Source: a bacterium
GTDB taxonomy: Bacteria; Bacillota_I; Bacilli_A; RF39; UBA660
Length of the DNA stretch: 51,245 bases
NCBI GenBank assembly: GCA_030531425.1
Contig: JAUNNO010000003.1
Location: 1 to 51,245 of the forward strand
Direction: 5' to 3'
The notes under the pieces: generated by a model
The model's database searches: none
The model's input: only the letters and a program-made list of their open reading frames with translations
What the model was told of the DNA's origin: nothing
Made by a program: the position numbers and the translations under genes
Shown: piece by piece, positions 11,284 to 39,555 of the stretch
Layout: each line of letters opens with the position of its first letter
How positions within the stretch are numbered: the stretch's first letter is position 1

Positions 11284-11290
11284 AATTAAC

Positions 11291-11464: not shown

Positions 11465-11477
11465 TGTATCATCTCCT

Positions 11478-22504: not shown

Positions 22505-22910
22505 ATGATTTTAGAAATTAAGAATTTAAAAAAAACATATCATACAAAAGATAGCGAAACTTTAGCTGTTAAAGATTTTTCCTTTGATATAAATGAAGGA
22601 GATTTTATAGCAATCGTAGGACCTTCTGGTTGTGGAAAAAGTACTATATTATCTATATTATGTAATTTAGAAAATAAATCAGCCGGAGAAATACTATTTA
22701 AAGATAAAATCAATTTAGGTTATATGCCACAACAAGATTGTTTATTTGAATGGAGAAATATATTAGACAATTGCCTACTTGGCTTAGAATTAAACAAAAC
22801 CTTAAATGAAAATACAAAAAACAATGTTATTAACTTATTAAAAACATATGGGCTTAGTGATTTTATATATAGTTATCCAGATAATTTATCTGGAGGCATG
22901 AGACAAAGAG
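22505..22910 (+). CDS. ABC transporter ATP-binding protein (NitT/TauT, YtlC-like), 5' half, interrupted
   Basis: Walker A GPSGCGKS and signature LSGGMRQR, then loss of homology at the element boundary. Confidence 0.9.
22904..22910 (+). repeat. attL core CAAAGAG
   Basis: Repeated at 39214..39220. Joining the two copies restores the ABC frame. Confidence 0.85.
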
Positions 22911-23078
22911 CTGGATGAATATGATGAAGACACAGGTAATAATTAAGAAAAGTTGCTTATAGCCCATAAAATAAGGGGAAAATCAACATTTGAGATTTTT
23001 GATTTTCCTAAAAATTGAAAAAAATTTTAAAAAATAATTTCAAAAAATTATGTATTTTTATAAGAAAAGAGGTAAAAA

Positions 23079-23474
23079 ATGTTATTAGATAATAATACTG
23101 ATAAAGTAATTGATTTATTAGATATGTATGATAATTTAAGTAATATTGATAAAATAAGATTAGCAATATATCTATTAGAAAACAAAAATTTTGATATTAA
23201 TTTTAATATTAAAGATATGATTATATTATTAAAAGAAGTTTTAAATAAGCTTGATCCAAGTTATAGTAAAACTATTGTTAATTTTGCTAAATACAAGAAT
23301 TTATTATTTCTTTCAGCCAAGTATTTAGAACTAACTGAAAAAGAAAAGAAAAACTTTTCAATAGAAATGTTATTTAATATCTTTGAAACTGATTTTAAAG
23401 ATAAAGTTATCAATAGAGAGATAAATAAGCACTTATATGTGTATGATTATTGTTATTCTATATTGAATAAGTAA
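23079..23474 (+). CDS. Hypothetical helical protein
   Basis: AGAGG RBS. Followed by a terminator hairpin at ~23478-23516. Confidence 0.65.
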   Translation: MLLDNNTDKVIDLLDMYDNLSNIDKIRLAIYLLENKNFDINFNIKDMIILLKEVLNKLDPSYSKTIVNFAKYKNLLFLSAKYLELTEKEKKNFSIEMLFNIFETDFKDKVINREINKHLYVYDYCYSILNK

Positions 23475-23550
23475 AAAAATACCCTAGTAGTCATTTGACT
23501 ATTAGAGTATTTTTTTATTTTCGCAATATCTTAATAGTGCGAACAGATTA

Positions 23551-24864
23551 TTAATTAGATTTTGCTTCAACCATCTCATAAATAATACATGTTTTACCAC
23601 TTAATTTAGAATTCTCTTGCTCACAATAATATCCATTTTCTTTATTAACAGTTTTGTTATAGTTTAAGCATCTACTACCATCATCTATTGATGTATATCC
23701 ACTAGGACAAGTTCTTTCTTTTTGTGGTTTTTGAGTATATTTAACTTCGCATTTTGTTCCATTTAATATGCCATCTCTCTCGCAATAATACGATGTTGGT
23801 TTAGTTTTTACTTCTTTATAACATTTATTGTCGTTTCCAAGATCTCCAGTCTTACATCTATAATCAGATTCATAATAAGAACTCATATCTACACAACCAC
23901 CATTAATTAATCTATCACCATTTAAACAACTACCATTTATAGTTGGTTTAGGTCCATAACATTTATGATTCATTAAAATATCTGTTGCTGGAGTTAATCT
24001 ACAATATTCTTCTGCCTCACCAATTAGTTCTTTTTTTATACAATATCCACTTACTGGATCATAATCTCCAGAATCACATTTTCCACGAGCATCATCAATC
24101 TCTTCACTTACACAATTATTGTTAATTAATTTAAATCCATCGTTACATACATAATTATTAGTTTCAATAGCTCCAACTTCTTCATAACATTTGCCTTCAT
24201 ATTCCAAGTAATTTCTAGGACATACTTCACCTTTACTAGCAGATACTCTTTTAATTTCTTTTAAGCAGAAATCCCCTTCAAGAGTATAACCTTCATCACA
24301 ATACTTGCCAGTTTCTTTTGTTTCTTTAAGCTCTGACACTGAATCATTTACTATATTCTCTAAAGTAATATTGTCATTATCTTGAATGATCGACTTTACA
24401 TATGCTATTTTAGCTGGACTTACATTATATTTTTTAGCAAGTTCTTCATCTTCTTTAGTTACACTTTCAATAATTACTATCTCGGTATGAATTCCTTTTT
24501 TACCAAATTCATACTCAATCTGCTCCGAAACCATTTTATTTGTAATTTTACCATCAACATGTAAAATAACATCTAGATTGTTTTCATTATCAACATATCC
24601 TTTTTCAATTAAATTAGATATTAGTATTTCAAATGAATCATCTAATGATTTTCCTTTATAATTATCATCTAATATATCTTTGGCATCATCATTTAATGCA
24701 ACTACGCTTTTGACTTTTTCACGTTTATATAAATTAATTTCAACGCTTGGATTTATGTCTAATGTAATAGTTGATACTGTTCTATTATTCCAAATAATAA
24801 ATCCTATAATTCCTATTACGATTACCAAGCAAACTATAATGGGTATAATTATTTTCTTTTTCAT
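23551..24864 (-). CDS. Membrane protein with RsgI-like extracellular domain and Cys-rich repeats
   Basis: TM, then LDINPSVEI..VVALNDDAK, then repeated C-x-x-G-[YF]..C units. Confidence 0.75.
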   Translation of the reverse strand: MKKKIIIPIIVCLVIVIGIIGFIIWNNRTVSTITLDINPSVEINLYKREKVKSVVALNDDAKDILDDNYKGKSLDDSFEILISNLIEKGYVDNENNLDVILHVDGKITNKMVSEQIEYEFGKKGIHTEIVIIESVTKEDEELAKKYNVSPAKIAYVKSIIQDNDNITLENIVNDSVSELKETKETGKYCDEGYTLEGDFCLKEIKRVSASKGEVCPRNYLEYEGKCYEEVGAIETNNYVCNDGFKLINNNCVSEEIDDARGKCDSGDYDPVSGYCIKKELIGEAEEYCRLTPATDILMNHKCYGPKPTINGSCLNGDRLINGGCVDMSSYYESDYRCKTGDLGNDNKCYKEVKTKPTSYYCERDGILNGTKCEVKYTQKPQKERTCPSGYTSIDDGSRCLNYNKTVNKENGYYCEQENSKLSGKTCIIYEMVEAKSN

Positions 24865-24875
24865 AGATTTTCCTC

Positions 24876-25637
24876 CTAATCATTAATCAATTTAGCATGA
24901 AGTACAACTCGTTTAGTACCATCACCAATACAACTTGATAGTGTTAGTATTTTATCTTCTCCAGATACTTCCACTTTATAATCATAAATTGATCTTGATT
25001 TTAATTTCTTAATAAATTTATCAAATTCATCATTATCTTTAAATTCAGTATTAATATAATAATCTTCAGGTTTAATCGAATAAGTAGAAAACACTTGATA
25101 GTAATAAATTCCTTTTTCAGTTACTAATACTATCTTTTGATTATCTTCATTTTCATACCAAACTTCATTAAGAGTATTTTTTAATGTTCCAAACATTGAT
25201 CCATCTCTTGTATTATGACCAAAGATAATTATATTTTTATCTGAATCATCAAACTTGTTATGGTAATCTGCAAATATCCATCCTGAAACATTCCATTTCT
25301 TTTTAAAGTTATGCTTTAAATAATAACTATTATCATTACCCCTAACAACTATATAATCTATATTTGTATTATTTACCTTAACATAAGCGACAGTATCCTT
25401 ATTTGTTTCTTTCAAAGTTTTAAAATCTATATCGTATTTTATTTTTTGATTTTCTTCAATAGATTCAATAATAGTAATTGAATCTTTAATAATTGTTTCT
25501 TGTATTTTTTTGTTATCCTTATTATTTTCTAAATAAGAAATGATTTTTATTAAAGATAAAAGAAACATAAAGAAAAATACTAACATGATTACAAATAATA
25601 ATAATTTTTTCTTATTTAATTTCCTTTTCTTCTTCAC
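24876..25637 (-). CDS. srtB: Class B sortase
   Basis: N-terminal TM, YYLKHN, IIFGHN..GSMFGTL, TLSSC..R. Confidence 0.92.
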   Translation of the reverse strand: MKKKRKLNKKKLLLFVIMLVFFFMFLLSLIKIISYLENNKDNKKIQETIIKDSITIIESIEENQKIKYDIDFKTLKETNKDTVAYVKVNNTNIDYIVVRGNDNSYYLKHNFKKKWNVSGWIFADYHNKFDDSDKNIIIFGHNTRDGSMFGTLKNTLNEVWYENEDNQKIVLVTEKGIYYYQVFSTYSIKPEDYYINTEFKDNDEFDKFIKKLKSRSIYDYKVEVSGEDKILTLSSCIGDGTKRVVLHAKLIND

Positions 25638-25645
25638 AATAACAC

Positions 25646-25996
25646 CTACTTTTTAATAAAAGTAAAAGTACCATTTTCATTCTTTAAAATTAATTTTTTT
25701 TCTTTAAATGAATATGAATACTTAGAATCTTCAGATTTTTCATTTTCAAAATCAATATATAAATAATTATCTTTTAATTTATAATTAAATTCATACTCAT
25801 GAAGCGACACTATCAATTTACCAGTATTATTTTTATAAAATTCATAAATTGTTACATTATCGTTAGTCCAAGTTCCAACTAATTTTAATTTATCTGAAAA
25901 AACTACTTTTATTACTAATATAATTATAACAAGAAAACATAAAAGTATTGCTAAGTTTTTAAGTTTTAATTTTCTTTTTTTCTTCAAAATAATCAC
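25646..25996 (-). CDS. Small membrane-anchored beta protein (DUF5640-like)
   Basis: TM then LVGTW..YEF...TGKL. Confidence 0.6.
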   Translation of the reverse strand: MIILKKKRKLKLKNLAILLCFLVIIILVIKVVFSDKLKLVGTWTNDNVTIYEFYKNNTGKLIVSLHEYEFNYKLKDNYLYIDFENEKSEDSKYSYSFKEKKLILKNENGTFTFIKK

Positions 25997-26062
25997 TTCC
26001 TAATTTTAAAGGCGATAATATTACTACTATCGCCTAAATACTATCTCTATGATTTTTTATAT

Positions 26063-28714
26063 TTATTTAACTTTAGATTTTTTTGATTTTGTAGCAGTAA
26101 TCATTCCAACAGATAAACCAAAAACTGATATTAATAACATCCCAAACCACATATAAATATTATCCCCAGTTTGCGGATTATTTGTAGTTGAATTATTAGA
26201 AGGTACTACATAACTACCAGTTAAGGCATAGTTACTTAAATGTTCCAAAGTCCCAACTAAATAATCACCTTCTACTTTAAGATTAATAGGATTTTCAGTA
26301 CTTATATTTCCTTGATCATCCATATCTACATTTATAATCTTAAATGTATTATATTTTTTCATCTCATCTGTCATTTTAATTTTGATATTAAATTTTGATT
26401 GACTTTCATGAACCTGGAATCCATCATCATTTATAACCTCTATTTCGTAGAAAGCTAAAAGTGTACCATAGTCTTTTGTTACATTCTTTAACGTTTCAAG
26501 AACTTGATTATACATTTCTTTTGGTATACCAGCTTCTTCTAATTGTTCATCTGTAAATGATAAATAATTAATTATAGTAAAAGTAAACTCTCTATCTTTT
26601 TCTTCAGTAAATGATATACTATTTCCATTCTCATCTGGTACAGTATATTTTTCTGTTTCAGCATTATTATTTTCTTCTTTTTCAACCCATTTAGCATATA
26701 ATGTTACATTATTAGTTATTGGTGTATTAAAATCAAATCTTGTAGATGAAGTTACATCTTCATACCAACCATCAAATGTATACCCCTCTTTAGTAGGAGC
26801 AGTTGGTTCAGATACAGATGTTCCAGATGTTACTTCTTTACTTTCAACTGCACTTCCACCATTTGAATTAAATGTGACTGTATATTTTGTAGTATCTGTT
26901 AAAGTTTTAGATACAACTGCATAGTTTGAAAAACTATTTGTTTCAAATGTTATTGTATTATTTTCTTCATTATATGTTGCATCAATTAATTCATATCCAG
27001 TTATTTCATCTCCATTATGTGTTTCATGAACTATAGCTAAGTTTTTACCACTCATATCATTTTCTAGTTCTAAAGTAATAGTGGCTTTATTATCAATATT
27101 TTCAACTGGTGTATCCCAAGATTCATAGTTTCCACTAGAATCTTTTTTACCACCTTTATAAATTGAATTATAAAGAGATATATCTAAGTAATTTTCTATA
27201 TCATAACCTTCATCTGTTGCTTTACTTTCAAAACCTTCCATTCTATTAGGAGACATACTAATAACGTCATTAACTTCTAATTTGGCAGTACCATTTTCAA
27301 AATTTGTATCGGTTTCTATATTACCAGATTTAACGTTCACAGAATTAGGAATTACTTCATCACTAACTTCTTCAAATATTGCTCCTAAATGAAAATTATC
27401 GGCACCGTTTCCCATATTTTCTTCATTAAATACTATTTTATACACTCCAACTTCATCAGTAGTAGTAAATCCAGCACTACTATTTGTAAGCCCTACTAAT
27501 TGATATCCAGGATCTGGTACAACTCTTATTGTTAATTCTGCTCCATAAGGAACAAGTGCTTCACCCCAAGCATCTCTTCTATCTGTATAAGCTTTATTAC
27601 CATCGTGCCACTCATAAATTTCACCAGTTCCATGAAACTTTGCACTATTATAATCATTAACATTATCAAACGTATAACTAACATTATCTAAATCTGTATA
27701 TTTTACTTCTACAAATTCAAGGCTGCCATGAGTGAATAATGAATCCTCATTTGGATCATAATCTGGTTCAGTATCTTTTTTATAATTCCATCCAAAACTT
27801 CCAACTAATTTTTCATTAGAAAGTTTACTACCTTCAACTACGATATTGTATCCATCTTCATTATATGGTACATCATTAATCCAAAATTGTAATGCTCTTC
27901 CTATATGATGTTCGTATATTTCATCTTTTGTATGTGGTGTTTGATTAGCATAATTAACACCATTTATTTCCAATTTTGAATATTCAATATTTGTCGCACC
28001 TACAAAGAAAAAGTCTACTGTTCCACTGCCATCATAATTATATTCATATTCAATTGGATTAGTTGTGCTTACACCGGTTGCATTAGGTGGCATTACTCCA
28101 TTTTTAAAAGTTGCGTTACCAAAAGTGAATGGTACTCCTTCTTCCTCTATATGATCTGCATTAATTGCAAATTTAAATCTAACTACATCAGGATTATTAG
28201 GTTCACTTTCTACATAATGGTATTCAATATCACTACCACTAATATTAATTGAAATATTTCCAGTTGTTCTAACAGTGTTATCAATTGGAGGTCCATCTAC
28301 TATCTCAACATCTAAGTTATTTTGAGGTGGATTTGTAACTACTAAAGTAAATATATAATTATTTCCATCAACTCTAGCATTTTTTTCAATGTAATTACTT
28401 AAGTTCCCACCATAAGAAATGTCAGGATAAGAATCTCCTTTTTTAGATGTACTAATTTCTATCGTGTATTCATTTGTAGCAGAATGATATTCATCACTAC
28501 TATTTGTCCAATTGGAACCGTTTATAGATACACTATTTACAGGATAACCATTATCATCAAGATTAAATGTAATAAAACTTTCTCCTGTTCCAATACTTTC
28601 TGCAAATACATTTATTATTGGTGCAAAATAACTAAATATCATTGCAAAAATCATTGTAAATGCCATAAATTTCTTTGGCATTTTTTTAATTGTTCTTTTA
28701 ATTTTTTTTGTCAT
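26063..28714 (-). CDS. Sortase-anchored surface protein with a Listeria/Bacteroides (InlB B) repeat
   Basis: Signal peptide, YTVTFNSNGGS..PTKEGYTFDGWY..TLYAKW, and NPQTG + TM + basic tail. Confidence 0.88.
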   Translation of the reverse strand: MTKKIKRTIKKMPKKFMAFTMIFAMIFSYFAPIINVFAESIGTGESFITFNLDDNGYPVNSVSINGSNWTNSSDEYHSATNEYTIEISTSKKGDSYPDISYGGNLSNYIEKNARVDGNNYIFTLVVTNPPQNNLDVEIVDGPPIDNTVRTTGNISINISGSDIEYHYVESEPNNPDVVRFKFAINADHIEEEGVPFTFGNATFKNGVMPPNATGVSTTNPIEYEYNYDGSGTVDFFFVGATNIEYSKLEINGVNYANQTPHTKDEIYEHHIGRALQFWINDVPYNEDGYNIVVEGSKLSNEKLVGSFGWNYKKDTEPDYDPNEDSLFTHGSLEFVEVKYTDLDNVSYTFDNVNDYNSAKFHGTGEIYEWHDGNKAYTDRRDAWGEALVPYGAELTIRVVPDPGYQLVGLTNSSAGFTTTDEVGVYKIVFNEENMGNGADNFHLGAIFEEVSDEVIPNSVNVKSGNIETDTNFENGTAKLEVNDVISMSPNRMEGFESKATDEGYDIENYLDISLYNSIYKGGKKDSSGNYESWDTPVENIDNKATITLELENDMSGKNLAIVHETHNGDEITGYELIDATYNEENNTITFETNSFSNYAVVSKTLTDTTKYTVTFNSNGGSAVESKEVTSGTSVSEPTAPTKEGYTFDGWYEDVTSSTRFDFNTPITNNVTLYAKWVEKEENNNAETEKYTVPDENGNSISFTEEKDREFTFTIINYLSFTDEQLEEAGIPKEMYNQVLETLKNVTKDYGTLLAFYEIEVINDDGFQVHESQSKFNIKIKMTDEMKKYNTFKIINVDMDDQGNISTENPINLKVEGDYLVGTLEHLSNYALTGSYVVPSNNSTTNNPQTGDNIYMWFGMLLISVFGLSVGMITATKSKKSKVK

Positions 28715-28780
28715 AAAATCCTCTACCTTTCTATTCAAAAATAACATAATATTTTTAAATAAAAAAGCACTAAAAAAAGA

Positions 28781-30103
28781 CTAGTTAGTCTTATAGAAGC
28801 ATTTTTCTTTTAATTCTTTCTTTTTCATACCAGTCTTTTTATAAATATTTGCAACATGATTTCTAATTGTATTTACAGAAACAAATAATTCATCAGCTAT
28901 TTCTTGATTGCTTAATCCTTGTATTAATAAATTTAAAACTTTTTCTTCTTGAGTTCCTAACTTATACTTTACTGCTATATTTTTTACAGCATCATTTTCT
29001 GACATTTTATTACTTTGAAAATATAATAAGAAGTATAAAACTATAACTAGTGACAAAAAGAATGTAATTACAACTACTAATAATGTATAATGTTCGATTA
29101 ATTTATCTTCAAATAATACCATTAGTCCTTCCATAATTCTAGAATACATCAACCCAAAAGCTGCAACCCATACCATATTCTTTTTATTATCAACTAAATT
29201 AACAAATGTCATTGTTCTAAAAAGCACAAAGAATGCTACAAACGAATAAGATAATCCTGCAATTAAATTAATTGAATAACCTTCTTTTAATAAAATTATT
29301 GAAAGTAGTGAAACAACAAAACTTGCTATTGTTAATATTTCAAACAAACTATTTTTCTTATCCACTAAAAATCCTGCAACAAGTAATCCTAAACAATAAT
29401 ATAATCTTGTCGCACCATATCCACCAGCTATATCAATTGTATTAATTGCGATAACATCAGTTGATAAAGCAGAAAGTAATGACATAGCTAAAACAATTAT
29501 TGATATTCTTATAAAATAATTTCTAAAACTTGATGTTTGTTTTTCTTCTTTGACTTGTATTAGATTAGTTTTATTTATAACTAAATATAAATTTAATAAT
29601 AGCATTGGTACATATATTATCAGAGCTTTAATAGACGAATAAAAGCTTTCTGGAAATAAAATCATTAAATATGTTCCAATTGATCCCAAACCATATCCAA
29701 TAGCAAAAACTCTTCCACGATACTCTTTTTCTACATTGCTACCTAGTAATGAAAAATGATATCCTGCTCCAAATCCTGCAGTTCCAAAAAAGCATGATAA
29801 ACACAAACACACACTCATAAAATATTTATTTTCTGTTGCAAAAAAAGATATCATACTAACAAGAGATAGTAACATAAATATAATAAATATATTCTTCACA
29901 TTTTTATTCTTTCTATATAGCAATCCAAAAGTTAGTATTCCCAAAGCCATAGATAAGCTTCCAAATAATAACTCTACAATATTAACAAATTCAACACTAG
30001 CATAATTAGTTAAATGTTGTTCCTGTGTTAAATATAATGAACTACACCAAAAGAATCCAATTGCTAAAATTAAAATATATTTTAAATTATTTTTACTAAA
30101 CAT
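28781..30103 (-). CDS. Multi-TM sensor fused to a LuxR HTH
   Basis: About 12 hydrophobic segments, then GLSNQEIADELFVSVNTIRNHVANIYKK. Confidence 0.88.
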   Translation of the reverse strand: MFSKNNLKYILILAIGFFWCSSLYLTQEQHLTNYASVEFVNIVELLFGSLSMALGILTFGLLYRKNKNVKNIFIIFMLLSLVSMISFFATENKYFMSVCLCLSCFFGTAGFGAGYHFSLLGSNVEKEYRGRVFAIGYGLGSIGTYLMILFPESFYSSIKALIIYVPMLLLNLYLVINKTNLIQVKEEKQTSSFRNYFIRISIIVLAMSLLSALSTDVIAINTIDIAGGYGATRLYYCLGLLVAGFLVDKKNSLFEILTIASFVVSLLSIILLKEGYSINLIAGLSYSFVAFFVLFRTMTFVNLVDNKKNMVWVAAFGLMYSRIMEGLMVLFEDKLIEHYTLLVVVITFFLSLVIVLYFLLYFQSNKMSENDAVKNIAVKYKLGTQEEKVLNLLIQGLSNQEIADELFVSVNTIRNHVANIYKKTGMKKKELKEKCFYKTN

Positions 30104-30280
30104 AGTAAACCACCCAGATATTATTATATCATGAATTTATATTATTTTTTCACTAAATAACTATATAGTCTTTTTTGTTTAATAAGTAGTATTTCTTAAT
30201 ATTTATGATCATCGGAATATTACTATTTTATGATTATTTAATTGAATTAAAGTAAGTTTAGGGTACTGCTATTTTACTAC

Positions 30281-30832
30281 TTAATTACTACTATTTTCTA
30301 ATGCTTTATTATTTTCATATTTTTTTAGCCAATTATTCCAAGAAATACATCTTGAAATTGCCACATATCGTAATACAATCCATATTAAAGCATCATAAAA
30401 TTGTTCTTCTTTTAATTCAGTTGAAAAACAATATTTTTTGATAATAGAAATATCTATTGGCAAAGATAGTTTTCTACCATTCTTTCCGATTACCTTAAAA
30501 AGAATATCATTTGCAACAGTATCTCCTTCTTCAATTACTGCATCAAATTCTTCTTTTTTACTAGCATAATAATCTGTTATTTCATCAACATCTCTTGAAA
30601 CTTCTTTAAATTGTTCCATAGTTAATGATTTTAATTTTCCTAATTCTTGATTAATTAGAATACTACAAACTTGATCTCGTTCAGATTTATCTAATCTATT
30701 TACAATTTGTATTAATTCATCTAAATCTAGATCTAATACTTCTTGAACTTTTGTTAAATCCCTTTCCATTGTATTAGAGATAACTCTTGCTACTTCTTTT
30801 ACATCTTTCTTTTCTTTAATAATATTTTTCAT
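30281..30832 (-). CDS. Hypothetical protein
   Basis: AAGGAG RBS, 183 aa. Confidence 0.65.
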   Translation of the reverse strand: MKNIIKEKKDVKEVARVISNTMERDLTKVQEVLDLDLDELIQIVNRLDKSERDQVCSILINQELGKLKSLTMEQFKEVSRDVDEITDYYASKKEEFDAVIEEGDTVANDILFKVIGKNGRKLSLPIDISIIKKYCFSTELKEEQFYDALIWIVLRYVAISRCISWNNWLKKYENNKALENSSN

Positions 30833-30949: not shown

Positions 30950-31408
30950 GTGATATATATGATTGGTAATAACTTAAAATATGCAAGAGAAGAACTTGAA
31001 ATGACGCAAAAAGAACTAGGTTATGTTTTTGGTGTTAGTCAAAGCACTGTAGCTGGATGGGAAAATGCTATTGATGTAATTCCATTTAATAAATTAATTA
31101 GATTTTGTAATTTATATAATTATTCGTTAGATTTTATTTGCGGATTTACTAGAAAAAATACTGAATATGGTACTTTTAAAATTGACAAAGTTAAAATTGG
31201 AAAGAAATTAAAGGAATTAAGAACTGAACTTAAATTATCACAACAACAAATTGCTGCTGATTGTGGATTTTTCAAATCAACTTATGGCAATTATGAAGTG
31301 GGAAGATATTTAATTAATACCATGAATATTTATAGTATTTGTAAAACTTATAATATATCAATGGATTGGATTGTCGGAAGGACAAACAAAAAAAGTATGA
31401 ATCAATAA
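30950..31408 (+). CDS. XRE regulator with two HTH domains
   Basis: MTQKELG..VSQSTVAGWE and LSQQQIA..KSTYGNYE. Confidence 0.88.
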   Translation: MIYMIGNNLKYAREELEMTQKELGYVFGVSQSTVAGWENAIDVIPFNKLIRFCNLYNYSLDFICGFTRKNTEYGTFKIDKVKIGKKLKELRTELKLSQQQIAADCGFFKSTYGNYEVGRYLINTMNIYSICKTYNISMDWIVGRTNKKSMNQ

Positions 31409-31504
31409 TAATTTGAAACATACTTTTTTATTTTTTATGACTAGTGACGGCATGACGGCAAATTTTGGGTGGGTACCACCTAATTTTTCCTGTCATTGCT
31501 GTCA

Positions 31505-31954
31505 TTATTTTTTATATTTATACATTTTTTCAGCAAGTTCTTTATTTTCTCTATTAGCACTATTTACTGCCATTAGATTACACAAAATTGAAATAGTAAA
31601 TAGTATATAAACAATTACTATTACATAAGGATTGGTCTTAATACTTTTATTAAACATTTCTAAAGCCATAACTACTAAATATAAAAGACCGCTTAATACT
31701 AATGTCCCAGTTGTTAAACCGTCAAATGAATATCTAATAGCTTTAGAATCTTTTTTATCAACATTCCATTCACCAACTTTAGTCCATTTATATAGATAAT
31801 ATGTTTCACATACTAGCATTACAGGAACTATAATCCAATAAATAGCATAATAATTATCTTTGTTAGTTGTCAGACACAATATCATAAATATAAGTAATAT
31901 AACATTTATAATTATTCTTAATATATCAAATATCTTTTTAGTTTTTCTTTGCAT
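31505..31954 (-). CDS. 4-TM membrane protein
   Basis: Four hydrophobic segments; overlaps the 3' end of the XRE gene. Confidence 0.7.
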   Translation of the reverse strand: MQRKTKKIFDILRIIINVILLIFMILCLTTNKDNYYAIYWIIVPVMLVCETYYLYKWTKVGEWNVDKKDSKAIRYSFDGLTTGTLVLSGLLYLVVMALEMFNKSIKTNPYVIVIVYILFTISILCNLMAVNSANRENKELAEKMYKYKK

Positions 31955-32450
31955 TCTCTATATTCTCCTTTCTTCTAGCACTATTTAAAACATTAACTAT
32001 TTCTTTGGCTGTTCTAATTTGATATTCTGTATCTTCAATAGTTTGTTCTATTTGCTCTCTTTGAGTTTCATTGTAATCTTTTTCTTCTAGGTCTTTTTTA
32101 AATTGTTCTACCATTTCCTCCCAGTTCTTAATAACTGATGAAGTATTAAGGATAGCATCAACAATTTGATCCCCCTTTAATCCAGAATAATAATTAATTA
32201 AGAATGGATTTAAAGGTGTAACTTGAAATCCTAGCCCAGCAGCATACATTAAATCATTATAGTTTAAACCAATTACTTTACTAATCTTTCTTAATGTTTT
32301 AGGATTAGGTATTTCTCTTTCTCCTGATTCAATACGAGCAAGTTCAGTATCACTTATTTTAGCAATTCTTGATAATTCTCTTTTAGATAAATGCTTTTCT
32401 TCTCTTGCTCTGGCAATCATTTGCCCAACAGTTTCTTCATTATTAATCAT
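31938..32450 (-). CDS. XRE family repressor
   Basis: LSKRELSRIAKISDTELARIESGER..P. AAGGAG RBS before ATG 32450. Confidence 0.88.
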   Translation of the reverse strand: MINNEETVGQMIARAREEKHLSKRELSRIAKISDTELARIESGEREIPNPKTLRKISKVIGLNYNDLMYAAGLGFQVTPLNPFLINYYSGLKGDQIVDAILNTSSVIKNWEEMVEQFKKDLEEKDYNETQREQIEQTIEDTEYQIRTAKEIVNVLNSARRKENIENAKKN

Positions 32451-32529
32451 ACGAATTAACTCCTTTCGCAATATAAATATAACATATTTTTAATACATTT
32501 GCAACCTTTTTAAAGAAATTTACATAAAT

Positions 32530-32590
32530 TTGCAACTTAATAGTTGACAAATTATTTTTTATAGTATATACTCAACTTATAAGTTGCATT
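32530..32590 (+). promoter_or_regulatory. Sigma-A promoter overlapped by palindromic operators
   Basis: TTGACA (32544)-17-TATACT (32567). CAACT-N4-AGTTG palindromes at ~32533-32546 and 32573-32586. Confidence 0.7.
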
Positions 32591-32816
32591 TTTAATTAAA
32601 ATTCAACTTAAATACTGTTCTTTGAAAATTAAATAGAGTTGGAAATCGCCGATATCTGCCGACTCGTTAAACAAATGCAAGGCAAACATCCTATTGGCAC
32701 GGAAGTTGTGGATTAACTAATATCCTCGTTACATATATGGCTAATAACTATATATACATCCTTAAAGGGAGTTGTTGGTAACACTAAAACCATCAGAAAG
32801 GAAAGGAAGGTAATAA

Positions 32817-33068
32817 ATGAATGCAGAAGAAACACTAAAATTAATTTCTACTAAAACTTGGTGCAATATTAATGATTTAATGAAGCTTACAGGATTAAGT
32901 AGAAGTTCAGCATTAAAGATTAGAAATAAAATCAAAGACACACTAAATTATGAAATTCATACAAGAGATTTACCAATGAATGTTGTAATTGATTATCTAA
33001 ATATTGATGTTGAATATTTAAAAAATGTCGCAACTAGAAAGGAGGTGCAAGATGAAAACAATAAGTGA
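32817..33068 (+). CDS. Small HTH DNA-binding protein (excisionase-like)
   Basis: INDLMKLTGLSRSSALKI; first gene of the rep/mob operon. Confidence 0.65.
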   Translation: MNAEETLKLISTKTWCNINDLMKLTGLSRSSALKIRNKIKDTLNYEIHTRDLPMNVVIDYLNIDVEYLKNVATRKEVQDENNK

Positions 33069-34008
33069 AATGAGAAAAGAAAACATTAAAAAAGATTTCA
33101 TAGTTGAGAACTTTATGAAATCTAATGGGTTATATTGTCTTGTTGCTAGACCAAAGGTTGGCAAGTCGTTACTCGCACTACAACTTGCTAACTCGATAGC
33201 AACAGGAACAAACTTTTTAGGATTTAGAACAAGTCCTTCTCCTGTCTTATATATTAGCACAGAAATGAATTTTTCACAAATTTTAGATAGAATCGACAAG
33301 ATGAAACTTGAATTTACTGATGATAATTTTAGATTAAAAGAACAGGAAATTAATGAAAGAAAATTAAATTTAATGGACTTACAACTAGAGTTTCAAGAGT
33401 TTGCAAATGACCTTAAAGGTAAATTTGTAATTATAGATATGTTTAGTGGAATTGATTTAAACAATGGTTATGATTTAAATAATTATCAAGATATGGGACA
33501 ATATGTTATTCCAAAATTTAGAGAATTATGTAAAAGATATAACTTTACAATTTTATTAATTCATCATCTAAATAAGAATAATAAATCACTTGGCTCTACT
33601 GCTATTGATGGCTCAGTTGATGGAATTATCACTTTAAAAAGAGATCAAAATCTTAAAGATAAAATACTATTAAGTTATGAAAGTAGAGATTATGAAAGTA
33701 TTGATTTAGTTTTAAAAAGAAATAAAGATTTAACATTTGAAGTATCAGAAACTGATAGTAATGATTTAAATCTTAACCTTATAATTTTTCTAAATTATGC
33801 TATTAAACAAAAAGATTTTTCATTCACAATTTCTGATATAATTAGTGATTTAAAATTACAAATTACACCATCAGTATTTGGAAAATTATTAAAGCAAAAT
33901 TTAGATAATTTAGAAAAAGAAGGTCTTCATATTGAATCAAAAAGAACTGGTCCTGATAGATTATATCATGCAAAATATGAAGAACCTATCTTTGAAGATT
34001 TAGAATAA
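33052..34008 (+). CDS. AAA_25 / RepA-like helicase ATPase
   Basis: ARPKVGKS, VLYISTE, VIID, LIHHLNK, LGSTAI. Confidence 0.85.
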   Translation: MKTISEMRKENIKKDFIVENFMKSNGLYCLVARPKVGKSLLALQLANSIATGTNFLGFRTSPSPVLYISTEMNFSQILDRIDKMKLEFTDDNFRLKEQEINERKLNLMDLQLEFQEFANDLKGKFVIIDMFSGIDLNNGYDLNNYQDMGQYVIPKFRELCKRYNFTILLIHHLNKNNKSLGSTAIDGSVDGIITLKRDQNLKDKILLSYESRDYESIDLVLKRNKDLTFEVSETDSNDLNLNLIIFLNYAIKQKDFSFTISDIISDLKLQITPSVFGKLLKQNLDNLEKEGLHIESKRTGPDRLYHAKYEEPIFEDLE

Positions 34009-34191
34009 TCTTCAAAATTTTTGATAACTTTTTTCTAAAAAGTTAGTAAAAAATGAACGAGGCACGTTTTGTTTTTCGTAAGAAAAATGAAAGTGGCGAT
34101 AGTGAATATTTTTACAATTATTAAAATGATTTTTAAATCAGTTTTAATAATTCATTAAATAATAAGTATCTGATAGATAGTTATTATTTAA

Positions 34192-34322
34192 TCTTGTTTA
34201 TAAGCATTTGCCTTTGCTACTGCTTAGGCATTTGCGAATAAACAAGCAAAGGGGTTTTTAGGGAACTCCCTAAACTCACGGTGGGCTATGCCCTAGTGAG
34301 ATAGGTCAATAAATGACCTTTC
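34192..34322 (+). promoter_or_regulatory. Hairpin cluster upstream of mobV, candidate oriT / origin
   Basis: Several inverted repeats (CTTGTTTAT/ATAAACAAG, TTTAGGGA/TCCCTAAA, CTCAC/GTGAG, AGGTCA/TGACCT). GTGGGCTAT resembles MOBV nick regions. Confidence 0.5.
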
Positions 34323-34353
34323 TACTAAAGAAGTACAGCAAGGAGGTGTAAAA

Positions 34354-35826
34354 ATGTACGATGGAAATCAAGTTTTGAGATTTGAAAGCAAATATAAAGC
34401 AAAAGATTTAGGTGGACTTGGTGTAGAACTTACTCAAAGAAAAGGTACAGGAAATTATGATAAAGATAGAACTGAGTTTAATCATAGTTTCGTACCACTT
34501 ACTAAACCAACTTTGCAAGAGCAGGTCTATTCTAAATTAAAAGAAAATAAAATATATTATAATGATGGCAAGAATACCAATTTATTAAATGGTGCTATCG
34601 TTACAAGTGGAAAAGAATTTTTTCAAAGTTTGGGAATGAAGTTTAAAGCAAGTGATAGGATTCAACAAGTAGGAAAAAATAAAGGAAAACCTATCTATAT
34701 TCCTGATATAAAAAGTGATGAAGATATTCCAGAAAAAGTTAAAAATTTTTTCAAAGATAGTTACAACTTTTTAGAAGAACTTGTTGGTAAAGATAATATA
34801 GTTTATGCAGAAGTTCATTACGATGAAGATACTCCACACATGCACTTTTATTTTATGCCAATCGTAAATGAAGTAAGAAGAAAAGTTTTTGAAACAGATT
34901 TAAACGGAAATATAATTTATCGAGAAGGTATAGATAAAAAAGGTAATAAAAAAATGTATCCTGTCCAAAAGAAAGATGAGAATGGTAAAAATATTTTTAA
35001 AGTAGAACAAGGTAAATTTCTAAATTGTGATCAGTTTTGGAAAGCATTAGGTGGTAAAGTATCTTATGCAAAAATACAAGATGATTATAATAAATATATT
35101 ACTGAAAAAGGATACAAGTTATTCAGAGGCAATATTGGAGATAATAAACATCATATAACTAAAGCTCAAAAAGAAATTGAGGATTTAAATGAACAAATTG
35201 AAGAAATGAAAATTGAGTTTGAAAGAAATAAAAAATTAAATGATATTGAAATAGAAACTGCTAAAGAAATTTCTGAAATAGATTCAAAAGAAGTTTTAAA
35301 TCCAGTAAAAAGAAAAGTAATCGGTTATAAAGATGAAGATATCAACAATTTAATTGATTATTCGAAAAAGATACAAAAGCAAAATTCTAATAGTAAAAAT
35401 GTCATTAAACAAAAAGATGTATTAATTGATGAACTTACTACTAAAGTAGGACATCTACAAAGTGAGAACAATAAATTAAAAGATGGTCGTGCTATTAAAG
35501 AACGAGATACTAGAATTTATGAACAACAACAAACTATATCCAAGCAAAAAACAATCATTAAGGAAAAGGAATCTATTATTAAAAAGTTAGAAGATAAAGT
35601 TACTGAAATACAAGAAACATTTAATAACTTTAAAGAAAAGATGTTTAACTTTTGTGATAAGATTTGCAGAGCTTTAGGTCATAAAATTGGTCTTCACTTC
35701 TCTAAAAATTATGATATCGACTATAATGAAATGGAATATTATGCTCAGGAAGTAAATCGCAAGTATGAAAAGTCTTATGAAAGACCAGAAAAAGATAAAT
35801 CAGATGATTTTGAAATAGGAATGTAA
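34354..35826 (+). CDS. mobV: MobV/Pre family relaxase
   Basis: DKDRTEFN, AEVHYDEDTPHMHF, QDDY, long coiled-coil C-terminus. Confidence 0.92.
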   Translation: MYDGNQVLRFESKYKAKDLGGLGVELTQRKGTGNYDKDRTEFNHSFVPLTKPTLQEQVYSKLKENKIYYNDGKNTNLLNGAIVTSGKEFFQSLGMKFKASDRIQQVGKNKGKPIYIPDIKSDEDIPEKVKNFFKDSYNFLEELVGKDNIVYAEVHYDEDTPHMHFYFMPIVNEVRRKVFETDLNGNIIYREGIDKKGNKKMYPVQKKDENGKNIFKVEQGKFLNCDQFWKALGGKVSYAKIQDDYNKYITEKGYKLFRGNIGDNKHHITKAQKEIEDLNEQIEEMKIEFERNKKLNDIEIETAKEISEIDSKEVLNPVKRKVIGYKDEDINNLIDYSKKIQKQNSNSKNVIKQKDVLIDELTTKVGHLQSENNKLKDGRAIKERDTRIYEQQQTISKQKTIIKEKESIIKKLEDKVTEIQETFNNFKEKMFNFCDKICRALGHKIGLHFSKNYDIDYNEMEYYAQEVNRKYEKSYERPEKDKSDDFEIGM

Positions 35827-36052
35827 GTATTTAACTCTTAATATTTAAAAAAAGACTTTTGTAACCAAAAAAATATGTGTTGTATAAATGTGATAATAAA
35901 ATTAATAATAACCTTTTTATAAAAAATGTACCAAAAATAAAAATTTAAATTTAGTAATGATTGGAGGATTGATATTATGGAGAAAAATTTACAAAAAAGT
36001 TATTACAATAGTCTTTTTATCTCTCAAACTTGAGTATGAAAGGAGTTTAACA

Positions 36053-36178
36053 ATGACATACAATATTATTGATATTGTAGATAAAGATTTAACTGATACT
36101 AAACTAAAAGAAATAGTTAATAAAAAGTTGTATAAAATCATTGAATTGTTGGAGTTTAATGTTAATTATTCTGAATAG
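36053..36178 (+). CDS. 41-aa protein upstream of the recombinase (possible directionality factor)
   Basis: GAAAGGAG RBS before ATG 36053. Function inferred from position only. Confidence 0.55.
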   Translation: MTYNIIDIVDKDLTDTKLKEIVNKKLYKIIELLEFNVNYSE

Positions 36179-36249
36179 ATGTTATAATAGTATTGGTTAT
36201 AAGTTTAACTTTAAACTTAATTATTACCTTAGAATTGGAGGTAATAGTT

Positions 36250-37863
36250 ATGAATGAAATGGAGAGTGTTGAGAGTAAGAAAGTATTAAGAGTTGGTATT
36301 TATTTAAGATTATCTAATGAAGACAGAGATAAAGCAAATAAAGAAGATGATAGTGAATCTATTAAGAATCAAAGAAATATGCTTATTGACTATGTTAATA
36401 AGCATCCCGAATTTGCCTTAATAGATGAGTATTGTGATGAAGATTTATCTGGTGCTGGAACTTATAGACCTGAATTTGAAAGATTAATTAGAGATTGTGA
36501 AAACAGAAAACTTGATATTGTATTATGTAAAAGTCAATCAAGATTTTCAAGAGATATGGAAATTGTTGAGAAATATATCAATAACAAGTTTAAAGAATGG
36601 AATATTAGATTTATCGGTTTATCTGATAATGCTGATACTGAAATTCTAGGTAATAAGAAATCAAGACAAATAAATGGTCTAGTTAATGAATGGTACTTGG
36701 AAGATGTTTCAAACAATATAAGAAGTGCTTTTAATTCCAAAATGAAGCAAGGAGAATTCATTTCTCCTTTTGCCTCATTTGGTTATGAAATTGATCCGAA
36801 TGATAATAACAAATTAATAGTCGATCCAGTCGCTTCTGAAATTGTAAAAAACATCTATAATCTATATCTAACAGGTTTAGGGTTTACAGGTATAGCTAAA
36901 TACTTAAATAGTAAAGAAATACCTTGTCCTTCCCTTTATAAATACCGAAAAGGCATTAAATTAAATGTAATTAGTAATAGACCTCGTGAAGAAATAAAAT
37001 GGACTACAAATGCTATTAAAACAATTCTAACAAATGAAGTTTATCTAGGACATTTAATACAAGGCAAAAGAACTACTGTTAGTTATAAAAATCACAAGAT
37101 TAGAAATAAAGATAAAAGCGAATGGATAAGAATTGAAAATACACACGAAGCTATCATTGATGAAGAAACATTTAGTAAAGTACAAATTGCTATGAAAGAA
37201 AGAACTAAACCTATGAGTACAACGGGTGCAGTTCATATCTTCTCTGGTAAAGTATTTTGTTTAGAATGTGAACATTATATGAGAAAAAAGAATACTAAAA
37301 AGCATGAATATTTAGTCTGTTCTAATAATCGTGATGGTTATGATGATTGCGAAAACAAAGCTTCAATTAGATATGATGAACTTGCAAATCTAGTATTAGA
37401 TGCAATTAATAAGAAAATTCAAAAGTTTTATGATGAAGAAGAATTAGAAAATTTAGATTCAAAAAAAGTTGATAGTAGATTCAAGAAAAAAATAAAAGCC
37501 TTAGAAAAACAAAAAACTGATATTCAAAATAGAATTTCTAAAACAAGAAATTATTTACAAAATCTTTATGAAGATAAAGTCAATGGTGTTGTAACATCAG
37601 AACAATTTAAAGATTTAATGGCAAATTATAATAAAGATGAAGATACTTTCAATGACCAAATTAAATCTATTACTAATGAAATTGCTTATTACAAAATGAA
37701 AGAAGAATCTTCAAAGAATAATAAAGAGATATTTAACAAATATCAAAAATTAGAAGAATTAAACAGAGTTATTGTTGATGAATTTATAGATAAAATCTAT
37801 ATTGGAAAGTTAAATGAAGAAACCAAAAGTAGAGATATACAAATTAAATGGAATTTTGAATAG
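36250..37863 (+). CDS. Large serine recombinase
   Basis: YLRLS, SG..RPEF, SRFSR, recombinase domain, Zn ribbon CLEC...C...C, coiled coil. Confidence 0.95.
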   Translation: MNEMESVESKKVLRVGIYLRLSNEDRDKANKEDDSESIKNQRNMLIDYVNKHPEFALIDEYCDEDLSGAGTYRPEFERLIRDCENRKLDIVLCKSQSRFSRDMEIVEKYINNKFKEWNIRFIGLSDNADTEILGNKKSRQINGLVNEWYLEDVSNNIRSAFNSKMKQGEFISPFASFGYEIDPNDNNKLIVDPVASEIVKNIYNLYLTGLGFTGIAKYLNSKEIPCPSLYKYRKGIKLNVISNRPREEIKWTTNAIKTILTNEVYLGHLIQGKRTTVSYKNHKIRNKDKSEWIRIENTHEAIIDEETFSKVQIAMKERTKPMSTTGAVHIFSGKVFCLECEHYMRKKNTKKHEYLVCSNNRDGYDDCENKASIRYDELANLVLDAINKKIQKFYDEEELENLDSKKVDSRFKKKIKALEKQKTDIQNRISKTRNYLQNLYEDKVNGVVTSEQFKDLMANYNKDEDTFNDQIKSITNEIAYYKMKEESSKNNKEIFNKYQKLEELNRVIVDEFIDKIYIGKLNEETKSRDIQIKWNFE

Positions 37864-37904
37864 AGATTTTATTCTCTATTCTAATTCCAAATACATAGTA
37901 AAGG

Positions 37905-38000
37905 AGCAATGTGCAAAAAATGCACTTTGCAAATTTGGATAACCATGTATCACTTTATAACCTAGATGTTATTATTAGTGTTGGTTATCGAATTAAAAAT
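37905..38000 (+). pseudogene. RhuM-family gene fragment
   Basis: Translates SNVQKMHFANLDNHVSLYNLDVIISVGYRIKN; YNLDVIISVGYR is the RhuM signature. In-frame stop just upstream. Confidence 0.75.
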
Positions 38001-38057
38001 TCAACTTGTCAATTTTTCTGACAAGTTGAAATAATCTTAAAAATATAGAGAAAGGAT

Positions 38058-38924
38058 GTGAAAAAAATGGGACAAAACAAGTTAGAAACAATTACTAATC
38101 TATTTGAAGGTAAAGAAATTAGAAGTATTTGGGATAGCGAAAAAGAAGAATATTATTTTAGTGTAGTTGATGTTATTGCTGTCTTAACTGATAGTAAAGA
38201 TTCTAGTGATTATTGGACAACCCTTAAAAGAAGATTAATTAAAGATGAAGGAAGTGAACTTCCGACAAATTGTCGGAGTTTGAAACTAAAAGCTAAAGAT
38301 GGCAAAATGAGAAATACTGATACATTAAATACCAAATGGATTTTTAGACTTATAGAATCAGTTCCTAGCCCTAAAGCAGAGCCATTTAAAGTTTGGTTAG
38401 CTAATTTAGGTAGTGAAAGAATCGATGAAGTGTTTGACCCAGAAATAGCTGCTAATAGAATTGTAAACTATTATCGTAATAAAGGTTATACTGATGAATG
38501 GATAAAGAAAAGATTAACAGGTATTGTTGATAGATTTAAACTAACTGATATATGGAAAGATGGTGGCATTGAAAAACCAGTTGAATATGCTCTACTTACA
38601 AATGAAATATATAAAGGTTGGTCTGGAATGAAAGCAAGTGAATACAAATCATATAAAGGTTTAAGAAAAGAATCTTTAAGAGATAATATGACAGATATTG
38701 AAATTGCTTTAACTAACATTGGTGAAATCGCTGCTCGTGATATTGCTAAAACTGAACATCCACAAGGATTAGGCGAAAATATGAAAGTTGCCGCTCGTGG
38801 TGGAAGAGTTGCTAAAGGTGCTAGAGATTTATATGAAGAAGAAACAAAAACATCAGCTATTTCAAAAGAAAATGCACTAAATTATCAATATAAAGATGAT
38901 AATAAATTAATTGAAAATAAATAA
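38058..38924 (+). CDS. Bro-N domain protein (phage antirepressor-like)
   Basis: IRSIWD..YYFSVVDVI, RLIESVPSPKAEPFK.WLA, LRDNMTDIE. Confidence 0.9.
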   Translation: MKKMGQNKLETITNLFEGKEIRSIWDSEKEEYYFSVVDVIAVLTDSKDSSDYWTTLKRRLIKDEGSELPTNCRSLKLKAKDGKMRNTDTLNTKWIFRLIESVPSPKAEPFKVWLANLGSERIDEVFDPEIAANRIVNYYRNKGYTDEWIKKRLTGIVDRFKLTDIWKDGGIEKPVEYALLTNEIYKGWSGMKASEYKSYKGLRKESLRDNMTDIEIALTNIGEIAARDIAKTEHPQGLGENMKVAARGGRVAKGARDLYEEETKTSAISKENALNYQYKDDNKLIENK

Positions 38925-39213
38925 TATAAATCTCAACATTGATAATTAAGTGAATCGGTCACAAATTGTGACCAATTGAGCATAAAATTAACAAACAATA
39001 ACTTAAAAATGAAAAAAATATAGGTTGTATCAGGACACACTTTGCAAACCTATATAAAATAAGACTTTCTTAAAATAAATTTAAAACTTGTAAAACTAAA
39101 AAGTTAAACTTTTATGAAATATTTATCCTTTAGGTTAAAAAAAAGGCTTGAATCAGGTAGCCAGCAAACCCTTATAAATAAAGGAAATAATGAAAAAATG
39201 TCTTCACTGCATT

Positions 39214-39220
39214 CAAAGAG
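39214..39220 (+). repeat. attR core CAAAGAG
   Basis: Matches 22904..22910. Confidence 0.85.
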
Positions 39221-39555
39221 TCTCTTTAATAAGAACACTTGCTACAAATCCAGATTTATTATTATTAGATGAGCCATTCTCTGCATTGGATTATCAAAGT
39301 AGACTTGCAATTTCTGATGATATTTATAATATCCTAAAAAAAGAAAAGAAAACTATGATTATGGTAACTCATGATATTGCAGAAGCAATTAGCATTTGTA
39401 ATAAAGTTATAGTATTAACTAAAAGGCCAGCCATTATAAAAAATGTTTATAATATAGAGCTTGAAAATAAATCTACCCCTATTAAAAATAGAACTGATAA
39501 AAAATTTAATTATTATTATGATTTAATATGGAAGGATATTGATTTTCATGTATAG
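39221..39555 (+). CDS. ABC transporter ATP-binding protein, 3' half
   Basis: VSLIRTLA..LLLLDEPFSALD (Walker B / D-loop), VTHD (H-loop). Confidence 0.9.

Follow-up and report, generated by a model that had tools for sequence, protein, structure and literature searches.

Introduction

The skin element in sigK, SPbeta in spsM and skinCd are described as prophages or prophage remnants that interrupt proven mother-cell genes of spore formers at an exact base by means of a large serine recombinase (LSR), that follow a directionality-factor logic, and whose excision during development has been shown (PMC4191935, PMC5499854, PMC5025042). In the published account of gin, a non-phage element inside the coding sequence of gerE in Bacillus cereus ATCC 10987, the LSR GirC is accompanied by a tiny protein, the 42-aa GirX, that is required for GirC-mediated excision and blocks integration (PMC5595907). 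Two further groups of elements carry a relaxase: streptococcal integrative mobilizable elements (IMEs) combine a serine integrase with a MobV-type relaxase, have no mating pore and integrate at a fixed position, bordered by a very short repeat, inside the dispensable gene rumA, and the small mobilizable elements Tn4451/Tn4453 join TnpX, an LSR with a DUF4368-type C-terminus, to a Mob_Pre relaxase, with Tn4451 integrating at low specificity and excising without a directionality factor (PMC5704250). As far as the account in this 2017 review goes, nobody had identified or suggested a directionality factor for IMEs with serine integrases (PMC5704250). Here, we describe an LSR-encoding insert that splits the gene for the ATPase of an ATP-binding cassette (ABC) importer in an uncultured gut bacterium of the RF39 lineage. 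The insert measures 16,310 bp between the crossover points and lies on a contig of 51,245 bp (JAUNNO010000003.1, assembly GCA_030531425.1), the whole of which is called the window below.

The locus has features of all these systems. As with skin, SPbeta and skinCd, an LSR element interrupts a gene of a presumptive spore former to the base; unlike them, it contains no phage genes and is known from its sequence alone. With gin it shares the non-phage nature, the position inside a coding sequence, a partner protein of 41-42 aa without recognizable motifs, and the fact that precise excision would rebuild the gene; it differs from gin in that the target is an ABC importer ATPase rather than a sporulation regulator, in that it has a MobV relaxase and belongs to elements that spread between genera, and in that excision timed to sporulation is here no more than a possibility and the 41-aa protein a candidate factor. 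It resembles the rumA IMEs in its gene make-up and in its fixed site with a very short flanking repeat inside a dispensable gene, and departs from them by a new host clade, a new target, i. e. the codons of the ABC signature, and a conserved candidate directionality factor. Finally, the combination of a DUF4368-type LSR with a Mob_Pre relaxase is that of Tn4451, whereas the family described here keeps one site (58 of 80 loci, and one more locus in which this motif of another ABC ATPase is used) and encodes a candidate factor. In the literature, as far as the accounts available to us extend, no element family residing in an ABC signature motif was found described. We put the probability at roughly 60% that the insert belongs to a large family of IMEs of gut Bacilli that integrate at the ABC signature codons, that excision in this family is controlled by the 41-aa protein, and that the copy in the window is trapped.

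The two ends of this copy carry different crossover dinucleotides

The interrupted gene, its junctions and its neighbour are arranged as follows:

22452..22487 (+): promoter-like blocks 5' of the ATPase gene, a -35 block ATCATTATCAATT at 22452-22464 and a -10 block CATAATATAAA at 22477-22487
22505..22910 (+): 5' part of the ATPase gene, codons 1-135 and base 1 of Val136, with Walker A, Q-loop and LSGGMRQR
22889..22933 (+): left attachment site (attL), with the host arm ending in ATGAGACAAAGA, the dinucleotide GC at 22910-22911 and the element arm TGGATGAATATGATGAAGACAC
39195..39242 (+): right attachment site (attR), with the element arm ATGTCTTCACTGCATTCAAAGA, the dinucleotide GT at 39220-39221 and the host arm CTCTTTAATAAGAACACTTGC
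39220..39555 (+): 3' part of the ATPase gene, Val136 to residue 246 and stop, with Walker B and H-loop
39539..40333 (+): permease of the same transporter (BPD_transp_1), an intact open reading frame (ORF)

A first-pass annotation, made from the sequence of the window, had proposed that a serine-recombinase element splits the ATPase gene, that both halves and the permease are undamaged, and that excision would restore the gene exactly. Joining 22505..22910 to 39221..39555 indeed gives 741 nt with a stop-free translation of 246 aa that contains LSGGMRQRVSLIRT and the Walker B sequence LLLLDEPF, and both gene pieces and the permease ORF are open. The join is no arithmetic accident, because the 16 uninterrupted orthologues in the same genus are all exactly 246 aa long. 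In the split state, the frame of the 5' half reads on into the element and stops at 22918 (ORF 22505..22918). The two junctions have the core CAAAGAG in common (22904-22910 and 39214-39220), and the attachment site of the free element (attP) that can be reconstructed from them is symmetric, as the same annotation had stated: its two 22-nt arms (TGTCTTCA..ATTCA..AG and the reverse complement) are mirror images in register. The centre of this symmetry falls on bases 22910-22911 and 39220-39221 of the window. In the related element of the species genome G024, attP is a perfect palindrome, ATTCGTAGA-GT-TCTACGAAT, around the same dinucleotide, with which the Val codon after LSGGxRQR begins.

The crossover dinucleotide is GT in 33 of 33 attL and 53 of 53 attR sites of related loci and in three further attL sites of the genus, i. 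e. in 89 of 89 cases: The attL of the window alone reads GC, against all 36 other attL and 53 other attR sites. Since GT stands at this place in the elements of G001, G011 and many other loci that share the left arm (TGGATGAAT...), the C in the window is derived. For serine integrases it is reported that the two-base overhangs must pair after a rotation of 180 degrees for religation, and that overhangs unable to base-pair block religation by the integrase of Bxb1 (PMC5062993). A crossover between an attL with GC and an attR with GT would be expected to give no product, because the overhangs would not pair. The shared dinucleotide that precise excision needs is thus absent from the copy in the window, and by analogy with Bxb1 this copy is most likely trapped, or at best excised with very low efficiency. 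The exact restoration of the gene proposed in the first-pass annotation therefore holds as arithmetic but is doubtful in the cell, given GC in attL and GT in attR.

The same allele deviates at other positions. The -35-like block reads ATTATCA in the window, with T at 22459, as compared to ATTAACA in 20 of 20 other loci of the genus. Moreover, the ATPase has six private changes at residues that do not vary among the other 21 genus sequences: L75P (next to the Q-loop), S79C, I96L, A137S (adjoining the crossover), S202T and K227T. This is the maximum among 19 full-length ATPase sequences of the genus, the others having 0-3. Taken together, the mismatch, the deviating promoter and the private changes suggest a copy that is unable to leave and a gene that is beginning to drift, and the ATPase gene of the window may be starting to decay. 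As a proof of decay we discarded the excess of private substitutions, which is only a weak signal and is not paralleled in the permease.

A less likely alternative is that the insertion is an ordinary active one: The C at 22911 would then be an assembly error or a consensus artefact, or the recombinase would tolerate the mismatch, and the insert would be a recent and fully excisable arrival. The open ATPase halves and permease fit this explanation, as do the intact recombinase, 41-aa ORF and relaxase. The identity of the element to sequences elsewhere also points to a recent arrival: its backbone is 93-96% identical at the DNA level to elements in other public assemblies, and pieces of its cargo recur with 99-100% identity in metagenomic contigs (four metagenomes, each from a different study). 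Yet the assembled contig does have GC where GT is kept in every one of the 89 other sites, and the -35 block and Ala137Ser add two more deviations at invariant positions of the same allele.

Related elements occupy the same base in many gut Bacilli

The searched collection holds genomes of 27 species of the genus, of which 23 have the orthologous ATPase, whereas only paralogues are present in the remaining four. The gene is intact in 16 species, split at the identical base in six and truncated elsewhere in one (G041, in which the frame ends at 204 aa and the insertion site is unoccupied). In four of the six split cases (G000, G024, G023 and G008), a homologous recombinase (67-83% identical) adjoins the 3' half; in G011 and G001, only attL is seen, at a contig end. 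A scan for relatives of the recombinase, with one genome per species, yielded 163 confirmed stretches, from which 80 loci were kept and scored for gene halves with a profile built from the 16 intact ATPases. In 58 of these loci, with recombinases that are 65-99% identical to that of the window, a half of this same ATPase adjoins the recombinase (both halves in 28 loci, the C-terminal (3') half only in 25, the N-terminal (5') half only in five), most of the other 22 loci end too soon, and three of the 22 have truncated 3' halves at the contig end. The 28 complete elements range from 2.8 to 13.2 kb, and the smallest contain little beyond the recombinase and one other gene. The 80 loci come mostly from assemblies labelled 'uncultured Bacilli bacterium' from the guts of rabbit, human, sheep, deer and chicken, and they include Candidatus Onthousia, Scybalousia and Faecisoma. 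The question raised in the first-pass annotation, whether other elements occupy this site in relatives, can thus be answered positively.

The closest relative of the recombinase (99% aa identity; locus L069, 13033-14962, also one of these 22) resides in a different ABC ATPase with an exporter-like membrane protein as its neighbour, yet at the same ...QR|VALI... motif. This implies that the choice of the target tracks the DNA sequence rather than the function of the gene: The landing site is set by the DNA that encodes the ABC signature region, and it is overwhelmingly in this one importer gene.

Some loci are occupied more than once. In L101 (recombinases at 9944-11611 and 18545-20098) and on the circular chromosome that holds both L084 and L145, two members of the family lie in tandem between one pair of gene halves, and their recombinases are 77% and 65%, or 90% and 65%, identical to that of the window; in L175, the recombinase gene abuts the left arm of a second element. 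These arrangements suggest that incoming elements can use the end of a resident element as a site. A pattern search for internal attachment sites in the tandem loci found none; its patterns were too strict and missed known sites as well.

In two genomes, an intact site coexists with a separate element contig (G007: intact gene on contig C53, element on C60; G041: intact site on C26, element on C46). The G041 element contig ends 3 nt past GT, and its end matches the G024 junction rather than the site of G041; such cases may be due to mixed populations or to binning. A second, decayed copy of the 5' half of the ATPase gene (66% identical, four stops) lies in G003 at C1:30387-30764, inside L067 and about 5 kb from the intact gene of that genome. 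The last ~30 bases of the L068 contig are presumably Illumina adapter and so not biological.

The family spreads horizontally, and split alleles show low dN/dS

The divergence of the recombinases is uncoupled from that of their hosts. Recombinase genes with a synonymous divergence (dS) of 0.007-0.19 are found in hosts whose permease genes have a dS of at least 0.84 or are saturated: L110 and L111 have recombinase genes that are 99.8% identical next to permease genes with 65.5% identity, and several other pairs combine a recombinase dS of 0.13-0.19 with a permease dS in the range just given. Thus, the element spreads between species and genera, and for the family as a whole this mismatch rules out a vertically inherited, domesticated intervening sequence. 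Three sister groups (L095/L103/L117, L133/L135 and L143/L144/L146/L147) look co-diverged, with a recombinase dS of 0.05-0.27 as compared to a host dS of 0.05-0.40.

The first-pass annotation had suggested a look at the selection on split alleles and had named inactivating mutations as evidence against an excision switch. For the ATPase pieces, the ratio of nonsynonymous to synonymous divergence (dN/dS) has a range of 0.00-0.13 over 14 split-split pairs and of 0.02-0.10 over six intact-intact pairs of the genus, and within the matched part of the halves there is no frameshift or stop in any of the 58 loci. Since the split alleles are under purifying selection like that on intact ones, the insertions of the family are, judged from these sequences, probably reversible in nature. 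If the inserts were present during the divergence, the split gene has been kept working, and this would require its reconstitution.

A further alternative is a rescue of the split protein, in which the two halves are made separately, the C-terminal one from an ATG in the arm of the element (ORF 39190..39555), and reassemble, so that excision would not be needed. In the window, there is indeed an in-frame ATG with the ribosome-binding site AAAGGA ten codons before Val136. An in-frame ATG precedes the C-terminal half in just 4 of 54 attR sites, though, and the closest arms read AAT at this place. On these grounds we rejected the rescue as highly improbable.

We also looked for excision products. 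No sequencing run contained more than 35% of the query words, and the Logan contigs of four runs, which cover mainly the cargo at 23.5-30.1 kb, had no 22910-39221 joint or its reverse, did not span an att site of this strain and are uninformative on excision; the joints in these contigs have sides of 21-25 nt in AT-rich DNA. In metagenome contigs, one exact 19-nt motif of the attP type, i. e. a single variant searched in assemblies that seldom retain circles, gave 26 hits, of which 25 are in unrelated DNA and likewise uninformative on excision. The 26th is the L175 locus mentioned above, where a recombinase gene (62% identical) meets the left arm of the second element: a tandem junction and no circle. 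The junction check that had been recommended in the first-pass annotation was thus made in both data sets; it gave neither an attP junction nor one of the restored target site (attB), and these data are unable to decide on excision.

A 41-aa protein is a candidate directionality factor

The right part of the element contains the recombinase and a short upstream cassette:

36053..36175 (+): 41-aa ORF (MTYNIIDIVDK...), candidate recombination directionality factor
36176..36249 (+): conserved leader that separates the 41-aa ORF from the recombinase gene, with an extended -10-like sequence TGTTATAAT at 36180-36188
36250..37863 (+): LSR of 537 aa from the ATG at 36250, with Resolvase, Recombinase, zinc ribbon and DUF4368 domains

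The Pfam families Resolvase, Recombinase and Zn_ribbon_recom each score over their cut-offs in the recombinase, DUF4368 scores 26.4 bits (cut-off 25), and the catalytic serine (R20-L21-S22, RLS) is invariant in 52 of 52 aligned relatives. The best NCBIfam match is XisF, the LSR of the developmentally excised fdxN element of Anabaena; at 128 bits against a cut-off of 375, this sequence match is a general family likeness only.

By a simple motif test, a homologue of the 41-aa ORF lies about 75 nt upstream of the recombinase gene in at least 54 of 79 related loci, minimal elements included. The spacer between the two genes is conserved beyond much of the coding sequence, and the leader in it also holds an imperfect inverted repeat (hairpin) and a GGAGG ribosome-binding site. 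In the region that corresponds to 35976-36249 of the window, many elements have a further ORF of 18 aa, with a strong ribosome-binding site, that lies upstream of the 41-aa ORF; together with the latter and the conserved leader it looks like a compact regulatory cassette.

We predicted the complex of recombinase residues 190-537 (alignment of 52 rows) and the 41-aa protein (27 rows) in three runs. The interface score ipSAE was 0.75 in each of the runs and 0.00 in the best control; among solved complexes, 116 of 157 come up to the mark for this score, and among mismatched pairs 2 of 215 do, a calibration that is only rough here since our own alignments were used. The runs agree in at least 80% of the contacts, with a predicted local distance difference test score (pLDDT) of the partner of at least 77, and the contacts are made by recombinase residues 381-406, directly after the zinc ribbon, and 487-537, at the end of DUF4368. 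The 41-aa protein is predicted to bind the recombinase, and the model is supportive of this interaction rather than a demonstration of it.

The gene content is that of an integrative mobilizable element

The other genes of the element are the following:

23079..23474 (+): 131-aa ORF at the left end of the element, no family
23551..24864 (-): cargo, membrane protein whose central domain is RsgI-like, with Cys-rich repeats
24876..25637 (-): cargo, class B sortase (Pfam Sortase; TIGR03064 with 181 bits, over the cut-off)
25646..25996 (-): cargo, DUF5640 protein
26063..28747 (-): cargo, surface protein of 894 aa that has a Listeria-Bacteroides repeat and ends in an NPQTG sorting signal plus membrane anchor
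28781..30103 (-): cargo, polytopic membrane protein, LuxR/GerE helix-turn-helix (HTH) at the C-terminus
30950..32471: regulatory module of a double-HTH XRE protein (30950-31408, +), a small membrane protein (31505-31954, -) and an XRE protein (31938-32471, -)
33025..34008 (+): AAA_25/RepA-DnaB-like ATPase, a backbone gene common to the G007 and G024 elements
34354..35826 (+): MobV (Mob_Pre) relaxase (Mob_Pre with 64.9 bits, cut-off 25.5)
38058..38924 (+): Bro-N domain protein, usually encoded at the right end in this family

The element has its own integrase and its own relaxase, the latter with an NCBIfam MobV score of 94.3 bits that is slightly below the cut-off of 100, and a family scan of its ORFs of at least 100 aa found no conjugation, mating-pore or phage structural families. 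By this gene make-up, the insert is an IME and not a prophage. The earlier comparison with skin and SPbeta thus applies insofar as a serine recombinase element splits a gene at a precise site; it does not extend to the nature of the element, which is a mobilizable MobV island that moves horizontally. Homologues of the 131-aa ORF take up the corresponding position in the G024 element (75% identical), in L114 and in L175 (92%). The 894-aa surface protein with its NPQTG signal is probably the substrate of the sortase B encoded by the element.

Is the insertion a developmental switch?

The first-pass annotation had raised the idea that the insertion acts as a developmental switch. In this case, the transporter would be a late mother-cell gene of the sigma-K type, and the element would be excised in the sporulating mother cell with the help of the 41-aa factor and be retained in the spore, as for skin, SPbeta and gin. 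We regard this as conceivable, with considerable reserve. The host has the gene content of an endospore former: its assembly (1.32 Mb, G+C content 24.9%, estimated completeness 94%) encodes Spo0A, SpoIVA and an uninterrupted sigK that scores over the NCBIfam cut-off, CotE was found in 27 of 27 genomes of the genus, and spoVS and a CotZ-like gene are present, as had been noted before; SpoIIIAE was not found in this 94% complete genome. Moreover, cotE of the same genome is itself split by another LSR element, so that the interruption of a true coat gene by a recombinase-bearing element does exist in this organism. This element of about 6.3 kb lies on contig C68 of the assembly (L158: 6235-13177, minus strand), interrupts cotE at about profile position 40, and encodes an LSR of 551 aa (~30% identical to that of the window), an LD-carboxypeptidase, a glycosyltransferase and two unknown ORFs; among the 26 other genomes of the genus, 25 have an intact cotE, and G022 shows the N-terminal piece only. 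A further possible element is found in the window itself at 6506-8936, beside spoVS (6042-6302): a tyrosine integrase, a Rep_OBD replication protein and a weakly Zot-like ATPase may represent a small integrated plasmid-like or filamentous-phage-like element.

The target also has a possible link to sporulation. It resembles ytlACD, and ytlA, ytlC and ytlD appear in the sigma-K regulon of B. subtilis as listed in PMC3416734, in agreement with the sporulation expression given in the first-pass annotation. In other genera, the operon consists of the genes for an NMT1 binding protein, the ATPase and the permease (NMT1 in six of six upstream genes scanned), an order like that of YtlC2D2A (PMC11466899); in the genus of the window, the gene for the NMT1 binding protein is located elsewhere, on contig C17. 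The best NCBIfam matches of the ATPase are SaoA and SaoP, far under their cut-offs and among families of the NitT/TauT type, and an Rfam scan of 20000-41500 returned no family at gathering score and thus no riboswitch as a clue to the substrate of the transporter. Outside the genus, the orthologue is present in three of five genomes with a strong Spo0A match and in none of 11 without, the relatives not being independent of each other.

Three unrelated LSR lineages interrupt three conserved motifs of this one operon, which also speaks for a switch, as does the purifying selection on the split alleles. The second lineage is inserted directly after the H-loop of the ATPase (profile position ~189) in L100, L110, L114 and L125, and the third near residue 209 of the permease in L123, L133, L136 and L137; their recombinases are only 22-27% identical and lie between the gene pieces, and some genomes have two inserts in one operon. 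The pairing of an LSR with a ~41-aa partner mirrors that of GirC and the 42-aa GirX, as reported for the gerE element (PMC5595907). One may go further and imagine a ytlACD-like importer operon expressed late in the mother cell and colonized at three motifs by up to three unrelated LSR lineages, each excised under a tiny factor and borne cheaply by the germ line, with the copy in the window as a natural 'locked' mutant; this extended version is speculative and, in our view, less likely than not.

The promoter evidence is ambiguous. The sigma-K consensus is AC-N16/17-CATAnnnTA, and the conserved blocks upstream of the ATPase gene, AACA-N15/16-CATAnTATAAA, fit it, but they approximate a sigma-A promoter equally well (TTAACA-N17-TAnTAT). 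The only other gene of the genome with the -10 block of the ATPase gene (CATAnTATAAATTAG) and its ribosome-binding layout encodes an 86-aa Cys/His-rich protein with a weak match to CotD (contig C82, 2371-2631, minus strand; E 0.0012, under the cut-off). The strict sigma-K pattern has only two matches in the genome, which are unrelated; scans for sigma-K promoters were therefore abandoned, since so few matches do not define a regulon and the promoter of the ATPase gene fits the geometry of sigma-A as well. The extended -10-like TGTTATAAT of the recombinase says nothing on timing. Several observations argue against a switch: the nearest relative of the recombinase sits in an exporter-type ABC ATPase, the elements are mobilizable and spread horizontally, the contig searches revealed no junction, and the crossover bases of this very copy are mismatched. 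Finally, the ATPase gene is missing in 4 of 27 species of the genus and truncated in one, and is thus dispensable in the genus.

Discussion

We propose that the LSR pairs the near-palindromic attP with an attB made up of the codons for SGGM(R/K)QR-V-ALIR of the ABC importer ATPase, and that strand exchange would take place at the GT that opens the Val codon. Integration would cut the ATPase gene in two and switch the transporter off. The family moves between hosts, and the MobV relaxase of this copy could allow its transport by a co-resident conjugative element. Reconstitution of the gene through excision would probably be governed by the conserved 41-aa protein in the manner of a directionality factor like GirX or SprB, a role to which its position, its conservation and the predicted complex point. 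In the copy of the window, the GC and GT overhangs would fail to pair, most likely trapping the element.

Several points weigh against this proposal. The C at 22911 comes from one metagenome assembly, and the sensitivity of this recombinase to a mismatch of one base is assumed by analogy with Bxb1. No attB or attP junction of this element was seen in Logan contigs or in the scan of metagenome contigs. The case for the 41-aa protein as a directionality factor is built on a structure prediction and on analogy. As to the drift of the ATPase gene, the private substitutions might just mark a long branch, and the permease of the window, with three private changes, is no outlier. Finally, the elements with low dN/dS could have inserted independently after the split of their hosts, and the selection would then have acted on intact genes.

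The mismatched crossover of this copy, the conserved 41-aa partner, the selection on the split alleles, the colonization of one operon by three LSR lineages and the element in cotE are new. If the members of the family are no more than selfish islands that have found a clever landing site, the value of these findings lies mainly in annotation: Many assemblies of gut Bacilli will show two apparent 'pseudogene' fragments where there is in fact a single ATPase gene with an interruption. The recombinase, its ~45-bp site and the small candidate partner would form a compact pair of integration and excision functions. If excision is tied to sporulation, the genes that are reconstituted in this process would extend to a transporter, a new class of targets, mobilizable elements would occupy this niche in addition to prophages, and there would be a handle on sporulation in uncultured gut bacteria with genomes of 1.3 Mb. 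The GC/GT mismatch of the copy in the window provides a natural test of how an element becomes fixed and how its target gene subsequently decays.

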